In this document: positions 1 to 5,407 of the stretch, piece after piece | Numbering within the stretch: the stretch's first letter is position 1 | Layout of the letters: the number at the start of each line of letters is the position of its first letter | IMG/VR virus record: IMGVR_UViG_2703718851_000002 | Span: 1-5,407 of that record | Origin: a virus | Taxonomy: Duplodnaviria; Heunggongvirae; Uroviricota; Caudoviricetes | Direction: 5' to 3' (one strand) | DNA length: 5,407 bases | Notes under the pieces: generated by a model | What the model was told of the DNA's origin: nothing | What the model saw: the letters and a program-made list of their open reading frames with translations, nothing else | Database searches by the model: none | Program-made: the position numbers and the translations under genes

Positions 1-81
1 GTGGACAAAAGACTCAGGAATAGACGGGGGGAGATGTCCGTTACTTAACCATTTCTCAATTTCATCGGCATATGTCGGGAA
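1..81 (-). CDS. Host ORF, downstream part (continues the frame of the gene at 4998..5407 once the element is removed); runs off the window start
   Basis: Reverse complement of 1..81 is stop-free in the frame that continues the 4998..5407 minus-strand ORF across a single GGGAA copy (..VFPTYADEIEKWLSNGHLPPSIPESFVH..). Product not recognised. Confidence 0.55.
77..81. repeat. Left copy of 5-bp target-site duplication GGGAA
   Basis: GGGAA directly abuts the Mu-type left terminus (TG at 82..83) and is repeated exactly at 4998..5002 after the right terminus (..GCTTCA). A 5-bp TSD is the hallmark of Mu-family transposition. Confidence 0.8.
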
Positions 82-262
82 TGTATTGATTCACTTGAAG
101 TACGAAAAAAACCGGGAGGACATTGGATTATTCGGGATCTGATGGGATTAGATTTGGTGGGGCTTGCAAGCCTGTAGCGCAAATTTTAGTCGTTAATCAA
201 TGAAACGCGAAAGATAGTAAAAAATTGCTTTTGTTTCATTGAAAATACGAAAAACAAAAACA
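82..262 (+). other. Mu-type left end (attL) with three transposase-binding repeats L1, L2, L3
   Basis: CGAAA-core end repeats at about 82..111 (TGTATTGATTCACTTGAAGTACGAAAAAAA), 195..216 (..TGAAACGCGAAAG..) and 231..258 (..TTTCATTGAAAATACGAAAAAC). Spacing and sequence fit Mu attL from memory. Confidence 0.85.
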
Positions 263-419
263 CAGCAAATCATTTCAATAACAGCTTCAAAAAACGTTCA
301 AAACCGATAACAACCAGGCTGTAACCAAATGACTCATATCACAAATCAGCTCATGCCGTTTAGGTATGTTACATGTGTGATTATGTGAGGTGAAGTATGT
401 TTTAGCTGGTTCATGGTTG

Positions 420-935
420 TTATACGGCTTTTTTTACATCTTGTGGTTCTTGTGAAGGAGCTACAAAACCTTCCTGTTCATGAATACCATACTCTGACAA
501 AATCTCTTTGCGCGCATCTGCTGGTAAAGTTTCTAGCATTTGGGCTAGTTGTATGCACTCACGCGATACGCCGTGCAGAGATTGGATTTGAGTCTGATCA
601 AAGATACTTGGCATTAGTGCTCCAAGTCCGCCTTTACTAAGTAGCTTTAATGCCCTCTGGATTTCCTCTGGTTCTAACTCTGCGACCAAAGCCATTAACA
701 CAGAAGCTAACTTATAAGCTGGCTTATCGCTATCTAATAACTGCGCCCCTCCTAATTCTGCCTGAGTGGCATCAGGTAATGAGCTGATATGGTATTCATA
801 AGCAACTCCCTTTACTCCTTTGATCTGTCTCTTTTTCCATCCCTCATTAGTTGCTTTGCGGCTAATACTACTTGCTGAAGACGGAAGACCAGCAACCCCT
901 TGTAGCTCTTTAGCTGAAAACCATTCTTGTGTCAT
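420..935 (-). CDS. c: Mu-family lysogenic repressor c (D108-like variant; N-terminal winged-helix DNA-binding domain)
   Basis: Supplied ORF 420..938(-). C-terminal half (..[37 protein letters not shown]) closely resembles Mu Repc as recalled; N-terminal part diverges, consistent with a heteroimmune relative. Track start at 938 is GTG only 3 nt after a GAGG Shine-Dalgarno; ATG at 935 (MTQEWFSAK..) is the likelier start. Confidence 0.9.
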
Positions 936-938
936 CAC

Positions 939-1134
939 AAACCTCGCTTTAAATACACTGTGTATTCAAAGAAACAAAAATATATTCATTTTAAAATCAT
1001 CAAGATAGATGAAATTCAAACGAAATATTTGAATACATCATTGCATTGACAATGTATTCACACTAACATTGCTGCATACCTTGTCAGCTACCTTGCGGCG
1101 TAGCTGATGGCGTAGCTTGTGAGGATTGCATTTT
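939..1134. promoter_or_regulatory. c-ner divergent control region (expected early/repressor promoters, operators, IHF site, transposition enhancer)
   Basis: AT-rich 196-bp interval between divergent c and ner start codons. In Mu this interval carries Pe, Pc, operators O1-O3 and the IHF site, and the operators double as the transposition enhancer. Individual sites not mapped here. Confidence 0.55.
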
Positions 1135-1353
1135 ATGGCGATAAAGAAAAGTAAATGTGAAGACAAAAGCAGATACGACATTGTTGCTGATCTGCGCAAA
1201 AGAGGAAAAAGCCTAGCAGCTCTTGGTCGTGAGAACGGTCTCTCTATCTCTACGGTAAAAAATGCCTTGGATAAACCTTACCCTCGGGGTGAAAGAATTA
1301 TTGCCGATGCATTGGGAGTTGAGCCACGAGACCTCTGGCCTTCGAGGTATTGA
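1135..1353 (+). CDS. ner: Ner-family DNA-binding regulator (negative regulator of early transcription)
   Basis: Supplied ORF 1126..1353(+). Resembles Mu Ner (..ADL.KRG.SL.AL.R..G....T..NAL....P.GE.IIA.AL...P...WPSRY) and sits in the canonical position after c. Track start at 1126 is TTG with no spacing from the GAGGA at 1121..1125; ATG at 1135 (MAIKKSK..) has good spacing. Confidence 0.85.
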
Positions 1354-1355
1354 AA

Positions 1356-1532
1356 ATGCAACCACAATGTAATGATTGGTTTTCTGCAAAGAAATTAGAA
1401 GGGCTGATAGGTCTTCCAAAATCCTCTAGCGCGATCTCTCGTAAAGCAAGGTTAGAACAGTGGGTGTTTCGACAGATACACGGGGTAAATCCGTTTAACT
1501 ACAGCTCCATCCTTAAACATCCACTTTCCTGA
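1356..1532 (+). pseudogene. Transposase A 5' fragment (about 43 authentic codons, then out-of-frame read-through of antisense U' sequence)
   Basis: [41 protein letters not shown] matches the winged-helix N-terminus that MuA shares with the repressor (compare [35 protein letters not shown] in the c ORF here). The remaining residues are encoded by the opposite strand of U'. ner stop TGA 1351..1353 and the A ATG at 1356 are 2 nt apart, preceded by GAGG at 1345..1348. Track start at 1350 is TTG. Confidence 0.8.
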
Positions 1533-3540: not shown

Positions 3541-3567
3541 GTGGCGAATTGATGCAAAGGAGGTGAG

Positions 3568-3756
3568 ATGAAATCAATTCGCTGTAAAAACTGCAACAAA
3601 CTGTTATTTAAGGCGGATTCCTTTGATCACATTGAAATCAGGTGTCCGCGTTGCAAACGTCACATCATAATGCTGAATGCCTGCGAGCATCCCACGGAGA
3701 AACATTGTGGGAAAAGAGAAAAAATCACGCATTCTGACGAAACCGTGCGTTATTGA
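3568..3756 (+). CDS. com: Com zinc-finger translational activator of mom
   Basis: 62 aa [27 protein letters not shown].. with a C-x2-C ... C-x2-C zinc-ribbon pattern; strong SD AAGGAGG upstream; 3' end overlaps the mom reading frame, as in Mu. Confidence 0.9.
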
Positions 3757-4414
3757 GTATGAAGGCCAGATTGTTGGCTATGGTTCAAAGGAGCTGCGCG
3801 TTGAAACCATATCCTGCTGGCTGGCCCGCACAATTATTCAGACAAAGCACTATTCCCGCCGTTTTGTGAATAACTCTTACCTCCACCTAGGAGTATTCAG
3901 CGGACGCGATCTGGTTGGCGTTCTCCAGTGGGGATATGCCCTTAACCCCAACTCAGGTCGTCGTGTCGTGCTTGAAACGGATAACCGGGGCTATATGGAG
4001 TTGAATCGCATGTGGCTACACGACGACATGCCCCGCAACTCTGAATCACGGGCCATCAGCTACGCGCTGAAAGTTATCAGATTACTGTATCCGTCAGTGG
4101 AGTGGGTTCAGTCCTTTGCTGACGAACGCTGCGGACGCGCAGGCGTTGTGTATCAGGCGTCGAATTTTGATTTTATTGGCAGCCATGAAAGCACGTTCTA
4201 CGAGCTGGATGGTGAGTGGTATCACGAGATAACGATGAACGCAATTAAGCGCGGTGGACAACGAGGCGTGTATTTACGGGCTAATAAAGAGCGTGCCGTG
4301 GTGCACAAATTTAATCAGTATCGCTACATCAGGTTCCTGAACAAGCGAGCAAGGAAGCGACTAAATACTAATCTATTCAGGATTCAGCCATACCCAAAAA
4401 GCAGTTCTGATTAG
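3677..4414 (+). CDS. mom: Mom DNA-modification enzyme (adenine modification giving restriction resistance)
   Basis: Long ORF overlapping the 3' end of com in another frame and following the gin-com order of Mu; the protein resembles Mu Mom as recalled. The true initiation codon is uncertain: ATG 3677 is the first ATG, but an in-frame GTG at 3707 or another internal start is possible. Confidence 0.85.
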
Positions 4415-4458
4415 TATCATATAAATTTATGTATTTACTCACATACGGAGCATATCAG

Positions 4459-4905
4459 ATGAAAAAATCAAAATTGCTAATCAGTACCATCATCAGCCTA
4501 TTCGTACTAACCGCCTCCTCAGTCAATCACGCTCAAGAAAAAGATTTTGATCCTGAAGTGGCTGCTGATGCAGTCTTAAGGTCCGCCGGGATAGATCCAG
4601 ATAAGAGTGTTGCAAATAAAGCCCCTGCCTCTGGTTTTTGGACCTGCCACGGTATTCGTATGCATATGGGCGTTGATATGGGGTCATGGACAGACCTTGA
4701 TACAGGTGAACTATACACTCAGATAGAAACAGGCCAAATTGACGAACAAGACAAGGATGAAAAGATTAAAGGGACTGATTATCTCTATGCTTTGACTAGA
4801 AATCCTGCGGTTATAAAGTATTTTATCGTTGATAAATCAGGAAAAAATCTTTATATCCGAGATGATGTGAATATTTTTAAGACATATAAATGTAAACGAA
4901 ACTGA
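4459..4905 (+). CDS. Hypothetical secreted/periplasmic protein, 148 aa, cargo gene between mom and the right end
   Basis: ATG 4459 preceded by ACGGAG (the track start at 4429 has no SD). The N-terminus MKKSKLLISTIISLFVLTASSVNHA-QEK is a classic Sec signal peptide with an N-H-A cleavage motif and no lipobox Cys. The mature part is acidic with two Cys and a Lys-rich C-terminus, and the region is visibly more AT-rich than mom. No family recognised. Confidence 0.7.
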   Translation: MKKSKLLISTIISLFVLTASSVNHAQEKDFDPEVAADAVLRSAGIDPDKSVANKAPASGFWTCHGIRMHMGVDMGSWTDLDTGELYTQIETGQIDEQDKDEKIKGTDYLYALTRNPAVIKYFIVDKSGKNLYIRDDVNIFKTYKCKRN

Positions 4906-4919
4906 CATACATAAAACAA

Positions 4920-4997
4920 CTGTCTCAATTGAAGCGCGAAAGTTTGAGTTTTCGTATTTTATTTGAAACGCTTTCGCGCTTTTCGTGCGCCGCTTCA
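4920..4997 (-). other. Mu-type right end (attR) with transposase-binding repeats R1-R3
   Basis: Inverted CGAAA-core repeats (GAAGCGCGAAAG, TTTTCGTATT, GCTTTCGCGC, TTTTCGTGCGCCGCTTCA) ending in ..CA at 4997; matches the Mu R end from memory with a few substitutions. Confidence 0.85.
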
Positions 4998-5002
4998 GGG
5001 AA
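4998..5002. repeat. Right copy of 5-bp target-site duplication GGGAA
   Basis: Identical to 77..81; immediately follows the element terminus. Confidence 0.8.
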
Positions 5003-5407
5003 CACGAGCCCCAGCCGTTGAAACATATTAGTAACCAGTAATTTCTGGGTTTCCTCCGGTGCACCTTTTTGGCTCAGGAACAATTTGAAACGCTCAGATG
5101 CCGCTTTGATCTCAAAGATGGGGAAAAACTCCCATAGAATAGGGAACTCATTCTCAATACGACTCAGGTACTCTGCTGACATTTCAAATTTGAAGAGCGA
5201 CATTGCCAATGCCTGCGGATGCTGCACCAGTGCACGCCATACTTCAAAGGTTGCCAGTGGTAAATAACCAAATTGATCGTACAGGCTACGCATAAATTGC
5301 CAGCCGGAATGGGCAGGATCGTTAGCCATCTGTCCGAGAACCAGTGTGATGGTATTAACTTCTGCCTGTGGATTAAAAAGCTGGGTCGCTTTGTACTGAC
5401 CCCAAAA
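4998..5407 (-). CDS. Host ORF, upstream part, interrupted by the Mu-like insertion; runs off the window end
   Basis: Minus-strand frame open from 5407 to the insertion point (..FWGQYKATQLFNPQAEVNTITLVLGQMANDPAHSGWQ..FQRLGLVF). The supplied ORF 4925..5329(-) is this frame reading on into attR until a chance stop, so its last ~24 residues are element-encoded. The track ATG at 5329 is probably internal. Product not recognised. Confidence 0.6.

Follow-up and report, generated by a model that had tools for sequence, protein, structure and literature searches.

Introduction

The transposable phages Mu and D108 (Muvirus) are recognized by TG...CA ends, a 5-bp target duplication, MuA binding sites at the left (L) and right (R) ends, the genes c, ner and A at the left, gin, com and mom at the right, and knock-out of the host gene in which they land. 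In mini-Mu elements made in the laboratory and in defective Mu prophages, the ends and the repressor are kept while transposition and lysis functions are deleted. Druantia type III, as described for ATCC 8739, EDL933 and ECOR19, is an anti-phage system of two genes, DruH of about 1100 amino acids (aa) being encoded upstream of DruE of about 2100 aa, and phage resistance needing both genes is known from the divergent Druantia systems of ATCC 8739, ECOR19 and M. smegmatis. Here, we describe a 5,407-nt stretch of DNA (positions 1 to 5,407 of the IMG/VR virus record IMGVR_UViG_2703718851_000002, Caudoviricetes; hereafter the window), in which a Mu-type element at 82-4997 interrupts the Escherichia coli gene yjiT and GGGAA was duplicated on integration. 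We propose, with a probability of about 0.87, that a phage resembling Escherichia phage PhiR68_1 (PV340575.1) integrated into this gene, the druH of a Druantia III system, and decayed there to an immobile remnant, the defence system most likely being dead.

All Mu/D108 features named above are shared by the element. In contrast to these phages, it has no intact A, no B and none of the morphogenesis genes, and its immunity region (82-1500, comprising c, ner and the start of A) shares only about 75% identity with that of D108, while its resemblance to Mu ends after the first 458 bp; among deposited phages this immunity-region type was matched by PhiR68_1 only, and about 15 complete E. coli genomes carry it. 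PhiR68_1 is the closest complete phage: the left 1.4 kb (window 80-1488 against PhiR68_1 6-1414) and the right 2.2 kb (2800-4997 against 34925-37123) are 99.8% and 99.7% identical, respectively, and the c, ner, com and mom proteins are the same. PhiR68_1, however, is complete at 37 kb, its G segment has the opposite orientation in the deposited record, and its Sv and U sequences are only 85-93% identical to those of the remnant. Like mini-Mu, the remnant should be mobilizable only in trans, whereas it differs from the laboratory constructs in being natural, in its TAA microhomology and in keeping gin, com, mom and gene 56; no movement of it was seen.

The host locus shares with the described Druantia III systems the two-gene order and the domain layout, i.e., an N-terminal helical part, immunoglobulin (Ig)-like repeats and a C-terminal domain in DruH, and a superfamily 2 (SF2) helicase with an MrfA Zn-binding (MZB) domain in DruE. 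Contrarily to those systems, which lie next to Zorya II and ARMADA II in O-island 172, it adjoins mcrBC in the immigration control region, and its DruH is strongly diverged, a phmmer alignment covering the N-terminal 245 aa only. As far as the literature was searched, there is no experimental work on the immigration-control-region allele.

Insertion into yjiT

The window carries GGGAA at both 77-81 and 4998-5002 as a direct 5-bp repeat. The left copy directly abuts TGTATTGATTCAC... at position 82 (also given as TGTATTGATTCACTTGAAGTACG..., starting TGTATTG...), and ...GCGCCGCTTCA, which ends at 4997 (also given as ...TTTTCGTGCGCCGCTTCA, ending ...GCTTCA), immediately precedes the right copy; the element termini are thus 5'-TG...CA-3', as in Mu-type insertions. 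Two junction strings are GGGGTAAATCCGTTTAAC and CGCTTTGTACTGACCCC. For excision in silico, 82-5002 (the element and one GGGAA copy) were deleted and 1..81 joined to 5003..5407, giving 486 nt. In the joined flanks minus-strand frame 0 is free of stops across 162 codons and reads ...QRLGLVFPTYADEIEKWLSNGHLPPSIPESFVH, which is the interrupted host open reading frame (ORF) as the first-pass annotation had written it. When zero or two copies of GGGAA were kept, each minus-strand frame had at least one stop, and in 22 of 20,000 shuffles of the joined flanks (about 0.1%) one or more of the six frames was open throughout.

Matches to the joined flanks were present in 238 of the 5426 complete E. coli genomes searched, and in 236 a single contiguous match covered at least 80% of the query and GGGAA was present once, so that the empty site anticipated earlier does exist; the top matches listed were 100% identical across query positions 1-471. 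The matches fall within a gene annotated as yjiT, "STY4851/ECs_5259 family protein". In strain FDAARGOS_497, for example, the empty site reads ...TGTCGGGAACACGAGC... with one GGGAA, and yjiT encodes 1096 aa, in accordance with the earlier view that the insertion lies inside a sizeable host gene; a DEAD/DEAH helicase of 2114 aa is encoded on the same strand, 12 bp downstream of yjiT, and the pair is flanked by mcrBC and yjiS within the immigration control region. The occupied site was found once among the 5426 genomes, namely in strain N61 (bovine mastitis, Japan), which is 100% identical to window positions 1-5392 and in which PGAP annotates both yjiT pieces as incomplete pseudogenes. Excision from N61 restored, in the wider flanks as well, an ORF of 1096 aa without a stop whose protein is that of FDAARGOS_497 YjiT, and the 18.5 kb of surrounding DNA then differed from FDAARGOS_497 at 10 positions.

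A 5-bp repeat is weak evidence when taken alone and the window holds 81 nt of left flank, hence it might be argued that the read-through is coincidental, the flanks stemming from different genes or from a rearrangement and GGGAA being a chance repeat. This is hardly conceivable, since the flanks are contiguous within one 1096-aa gene in 236 genomes and an open frame is expected by chance at only about 0.1%; the contiguous empty sites together with the restored ORF already refute it.

Identity of the interrupted gene

The host product had been regarded as not recognizable from the fragment, a view that profile libraries overturn by identifying YjiT as DruH of Druantia type III. Full-length YjiT matched the PADLOC model of DruH (PDLC00049) from end to end with 1828 bits and the NCBIfam family YjiT_fam (NF038336) with 1258 bits (cut-off 150), and the 2114-aa neighbour, the gene of which lies outside the window, matched DruE (type III, DruE3) over residues 1-2110 with 2701 bits and contains the domains PF00270 (DEAD), PF00271 (Helicase_C) and PF09369 (MZB). 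Because of these profile scores and the helicase and MZB domains, the yjiT-helicase pair is assigned to Druantia type III as druH-druE. Pfam gave no match for the 162-aa fragment or for full-length YjiT in the release used, which is without the YjiT_N and YjiT_2nd families; both families do appear in precomputed annotations. Moreover, preprints place DruH in the YjiT family and name the representative in the immigration control region (PMC13192584).

Consequence for DruH and DruE

The insertion breaks YjiT between F966 and P967. The product of the upstream fragment would consist of residues 1-967 of YjiT and a tail of 23 residues encoded by the phage (stop codon at 4928-4930), which is in accordance with the 990 aa reported by gene callers. 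The 130 C-terminal residues that are lost can be aligned with those of homologues ranging from Enterobacterales to Pseudomonas, Methylophaga and Salinisphaera, these being 41-77% identical to YjiT and covering 99-100% of it. The lost segment contains the most conserved motif of the family, with 21 positions invariant in 25 of 25 aligned sequences, including homologues of down to 41% identity: W994, L998, P1008, L1015, W1018, R1036, P1043, F1045, A1047, F1060, F1068, F1069, R1071, R1074, D1075, F1076, D1077, F1081, Q1086, L1089, and L1090. An AlphaFold model (mean pLDDT 76) built on a protein 97% identical to this YjiT shows a helical domain at the N-terminus, an Ig-like middle region rich in beta structure (272-818) and an all-helical C-terminal domain (834-1095), and places the break between the helices 948-965 and 967-979, i.e., in the middle of the C-terminal domain, half of which would be lost. 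Foldseek searches of the model against a PDB library older than the DruH entries returned generic tandem Ig-domain matches (TM <0.12), which would confirm the Ig-like middle region of YjiT and nothing further. The PDB codes cited for DruH coordinates are 28XY, 28YA and 28YB (10.64898/2026.05.12.722862).

In Druantia III-A of ATCC 8739, where DruH has 1119 aa, defence is lost when either druH or druE is deleted, as it is on deletion of the C-terminal part of DruH, and residues R1031, H1062, R1064 and K1067 of the C-terminal domain form a pocket for single-stranded DNA (ssDNA) and ATP (10.64898/2026.05.12.722862; PMC13192584). Because of the loss of 130 conserved C-terminal residues together with these published deletion data, the Druantia defence function of the occupied allele is very likely lost. 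The first-pass annotation had called the host gene probably inactivated, and these two arguments, the second drawn from a divergent DruH, speak for that.

The effect on druE is harder to judge. In N61 the gene is separated from the operon promoter by 4.9 kb in which gin, com, mom and gene 56 run antisense to druE. Polarity is a classical property of Mu insertions and is presumed here for druE as well. DruE of N61 is intact and differs from that of FDAARGOS_497 by one substitution, H201Y, within the DEAD-helicase domain (residues 106-310).

Several observations weigh against the reading proposed here. GGGAA fits the Mu target preference N-Y-(G/C)-R-N in part only. YjiT was aligned by phmmer to DruH 9tud_A at residues 14-258 only, and a profile of 25 sequences at 14-942 only; since the profile alignment stops at 942, the published pocket residues cannot be mapped to the lost segment, and the conserved R1036, R1071 and R1074 lie beyond the point at which the alignment ends. 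The DruH that was studied by experiment is a divergent paralogue. Furthermore, terminator and promoter scans both yielded no more sites than chance, so that they decide neither polarity on druE nor read-through, and no terminator-like site was detected between c and the left end. Since c and druE run in the same direction, transcripts reading through from the promoter of the repressor could still express the intact druE. Finally, the order of events, insertion before deletion, is one that we infer.

These points bear on the idea that the insertion was neutral or only partly damaging, either because DruH(1-967) with its 23 additional residues retains some activity and druE is expressed by read-through, or because the locus was dead beforehand. 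The intact druE of N61, the co-directional c without a terminator-like site behind it, and the frequent decay of the locus (at least 80% of yjiT in one place in 223 of 633 carrier genomes) are in line with this idea. However, the excised ORF is without lesion and its protein is identical to that of an intact allele, hence druH was probably functional when it was hit; the missing residues hold the most conserved motif of the family; C-terminal deletion of the homologous DruH abolishes defence; and read-through into druE would give none, since by the published genetics DruE without DruH does not protect. A later IS150 insertion in the same gene (see below) likewise fits relaxed selection. We therefore consider a neutral insertion unlikely and favour loss of the defence system.

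Anatomy of the remnant

The features of the window are collected in Table 1. The gene order, c (leftward), ner and A at the left and gin, com and mom at the right, is collinear with PhiR68_1, D108 and Mu. Scanning for MuA sites gave four matches, L1 and L3 being perfect and R2 and R3 having 2-3 mismatches, as compared to 0.04 expected by chance. L2 and R1 were not detected in the window at up to 3 mismatches to the MuA consensus; R1 is presumably present at the right end, as judged from its identity to the PhiR68_1 end. With A reduced to 44 codons and B gone, the element is no longer an autonomous Mu-type phage, and from its gene content it is predicted to carry the cis sites of a mini-Mu without transposase and to be unable to move on its own.

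Table 1. Features of the 5,407-nt window and the basis of their assignment.
Feature	Position	Strand	Basis
yjiT/druH 3' fragment, codons F966-H992, running leftwards beyond the window	1..81	-	100% match to FDAARGOS_497 and N61 yjiT
Left target-site duplication copy, GGGAA	77..81		Single copy at empty site
Defective Mu-type (PhiR68_1/D108-like) prophage remnant, 4916 bp, both ends intact	82..4997	+	PhiR68_1 identity, gene content
MuA end-binding site L1	87..108	+	Perfect match to TGNTTCAYTNNAARYRCGAAAR
MuA end-binding site L3	232..253	+	Perfect consensus match; direct repeat D1
Repressor gene c, 171 aa, toward left end, co-directional with yjiT/druE	420..935	-	PF02316 (Mu DNA-binding domain); phrog_7148; 171/171 identical to PhiR68_1
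ner, 72 aa	1135..1353	+	PF13693; phrog_769; 72/72 identical to PhiR68_1 Ner
Transposase gene A stump, 44 native and 14 foreign codons plus stop	1356..1532	+	PhiR68_1 A alignment; weak PF02316 match
Truncated tail-fibre assembly gene U, native to junction 1489, then 12 foreign codons	1452..1802	-	PF02413; phrog_136; PGAP pseudogene in N61
Internal deletion junction, 3-bp microhomology TAA, about 32.2 kb lost	1486..1488		Comparison with PhiR68_1 1386-1446 and reverse complement of 33183-33243
Variable part (Sv) of tail-fibre gene S, constant part gone	1804..2837	-	1991-2837 = PhiR68_1 32731-31885, 93%; SfMu 95%
Sole remaining gix site (right-hand)	2812..2837		One occurrence in window; aligned with PhiR68_1 gixL and gixR
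gin, DNA invertase, 193 aa, intact	2892..3473	+	PF00239, PF02796; phrog_125; 192/193 identical to PhiR68_1
com, 62 aa	3568..3756	+	PF10122; phrog_13819; 62/62 identical to PhiR68_1
mom, DNA-modification gene, 235 aa	3707..4414	+	PF25680, E 2.7e-75; 235/235 identical to PhiR68_1
"D108-specific" gene 56 homologue, 148 aa	4459..4905	+	phrog_15648; D108 and PhiR68_1 annotation; 147/148 identical to PhiR68_1
Right end: R3 4921-4942 (+), R2 4949-4970 (-), putative terminal R1 region ending ...CA	4921..4997		R3/R2 by consensus, R1 by PhiR68_1 end identity
Right target-site duplication copy, GGGAA	4998..5002		Sequence inspection
yjiT/druH fragment, about codons K836-V965	5003..5391	-	In N61 part of 990-aa truncated product
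Terminal inverted repeat of IS150 (IS3 family), TGTACTGACCCCAAAA	5392..5407		Host homology break; recurrent boundary

Proposed origin and decay of the remnant

The internal deletion removed the segment from A codon 44 to the inside of U, joining ...ACACGGGGTAA of A to ATCCGTTTAAC... of U at the shared TAA, with GGGGTAA|ATCCGTTT as junction string. To judge from this junction, the deletion would be the product of illegitimate recombination at microhomology and not of Gin or MuA action. A deletion made by Gin was considered and rejected: the junction is 1.3 kb from the only gix and has no resemblance to gix. Since one gix site is left and its partner was deleted, the G segment is expected to be frozen in its orientation. 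The Sv-U cassette (1486-2837) is mosaic, being closer to the Shigella phage SfMu (95%) than to PhiR68_1.

The junction-spanning ORF was present in eight public assemblies; the three that were read at this ORF were 100% identical to the window, and the two with readable flanks (L044 and L045) have the element at the yjiT site. At any other site no remnant was seen in the 5426 complete genomes or in the assemblies with readable flanks. The deletion junction was absent from viral contigs, and the right Mu/yjiT junction was absent from metagenome contigs. In about 14 other complete genomes this left end is joined to a transposase gene; these are apparently full-length relatives, and their flanking genes, where listed, differ as expected for a transposing phage.

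Defective prophages are well known to arise by deletion of the killing functions from a resident Mu prophage, and decay in place after one integration would be the simplest history for this locus. Nevertheless, a mini-Mu formed elsewhere might have been moved into yjiT by a helper phage supplying MuA and MuB in trans, with no decay in place at all. All cis requirements are kept, with MuA sites at both ends; the c-ner intergenic region, in which the transpositional enhancer of Mu lies, is 99.8% identical to that of the functional phage, and the 5-bp duplication would arise either way. On the other hand, a mobile derivative is difficult to reconcile with its presence in only 1 of 5426 complete genomes, with the same yjiT site in both readable assemblies among the eight and none elsewhere, and with the left end being single-copy in N61, which has no second copy. 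Helper-mediated entry is thus improbable in our view, as compared to decay in place.

The history proposed here would be as follows. A Mu-type phage near PhiR68_1, with a D108-like right end, would have transposed into yjiT (druH) of an N61-type E. coli lineage, duplicating GGGAA upon integration. The resident prophage would then have lost about 32 kb, from A codon 44 to inside U, at the 3-bp microhomology, leaving behind an immobile 4916 bp in which both ends are kept and c, ner, gin, com, mom and gene 56 are intact. DruH is cut after residue 966/967 and deprived of its 130 conserved residues, and 4.9 kb of phage DNA, for the most part antisense, separates druE from the promoter, so that the defence system is most likely dead, and the source genome would later have gained IS150 about 390 bp upstream in the same gene.

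A second insertion in yjiT

At position 5393 the sequence of the window ceases to follow that of N61 and of all empty-site genomes, and 5392-5407 match the inverted repeat of IS150, TGTACTGACCCCAAAAAGTTGGACAG..., at 16 of 16 nt, these 16 nt being the part of the insertion sequence (IS) that the window contains. In viral contigs, about 32 of 40 exact matches of the 16-mer continue as ...AAGTTGGACA..., while the upstream DNA is unrelated; shared downstream and unrelated upstream sequence indicate the boundary of a mobile element. About 40 matches would be roughly expected by chance according to our own estimate, an origin that was rejected because about 32 of them share the downstream sequence. 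The enterobacterial version of this boundary element is IS150, an element carried by 2865 of the 5426 E. coli genomes.

This has consequences for the host frame, which had been described as open at both window edges. It is indeed open throughout; however, the right edge (5392-5407) is the IS150 end and not yjiT, thus the open edge there does not mean that yjiT continues in the source genome, and the first five residues of the frame (FWGQY) are derived from IS150 and not from YjiT. The IS150 end is located about 390 bp from the Mu-type insertion, at about codon 836 of yjiT, and is absent in N61 and in the Logan assemblies. The yjiT-IS150 junction was also absent from viral and species-representative genome collections, and the ORF of the 134-aa fragment was absent from records. 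The source of the window is thus a relative of N61 with IS150 also in yjiT, or possibly a contig ending in the IS150 repeat. A later IS150 insertion in yjiT would fit relaxed selection on a dead gene.

Repeated loss of the Druantia III locus

Other decayed alleles of the same locus were inactivated independently. K-12 MG1655 (4572414-4576855) has a yjiT stump of 505 aa and the pseudogene yjiV, in strain S1-CAM-04-C yjiT is interrupted by two copies of IS5, and among the 633 genomes that carry this type of yjiT no more than 223 have 80% or more of the gene in one place. The lesions there are deletions or IS insertions, whereas here the lesion is a transposable phage, with IS150 in one lineage. 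The present case therefore adds a Mu-type phage to the K-12-type deletion, IS5 and IS150 as causes of the repeated loss of Druantia III from the immigration control region. Its importance is modest: it offers a clean case from nature in which an anti-phage system is destroyed by a transposable phage and the empty site provides an exact control. The mutation is an ordinary textbook Mu-type insertion that stands out only for its target, a defence gene, and nothing suggests a new mechanism.

Lysogens of the Mu-like phage DMS3 in Pseudomonas aeruginosa similarly end without a host immune system, but there CRISPR self-targeting drives the loss, with deletions and polylysogeny (PMC11406979), whereas the locus described here shows no sign of conflict or selection. 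Druantia III reacts to exposed ssDNA and forked replication intermediates and is toxic under SOS or mitomycin C, as reported in preprints including PMC13192584. It is conceivable, though doubtful, that selection, and not chance, favoured the loss of Druantia III to a transposable phage, with the retained c, gin, mom and gene 56 as beneficial cargo (superinfection immunity, DNA modification) replacing the lost defence. If so, a Mu-type lysogen, which replicates via forked transposition intermediates, may survive or induce better without druH.

For annotation, the two partial yjiT pseudogenes and the scattered phage genes of N61 are to be read as one event, and surveys of defence systems should not score a druE call as functional where the adjacent druH is split. 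N61 together with a derivative in which yjiT is restored could serve as an isogenic pair for the Druantia III allele of the immigration control region.

Additional features of the remnant

The start of mom differs by record, with 245 aa from 3677 in N61 and 235 aa from 3707 in PhiR68_1, and com and mom overlap both ways. The gene 56 product, kept intact in the remnant, has a hydrophobic, signal-like N-terminus (MKKSKLLISTIISLFVLTASSVNHA) and had no match in Pfam or NCBIfam. A perfect 14-nt inverted repeat links 1098-1111, upstream of ner, with 4052-4065, inside mom (GCGTAGCTGATGGC and GCCATCAGCTACGC); with a rough chance expectation of about 0.05, it is probably a coincidence.

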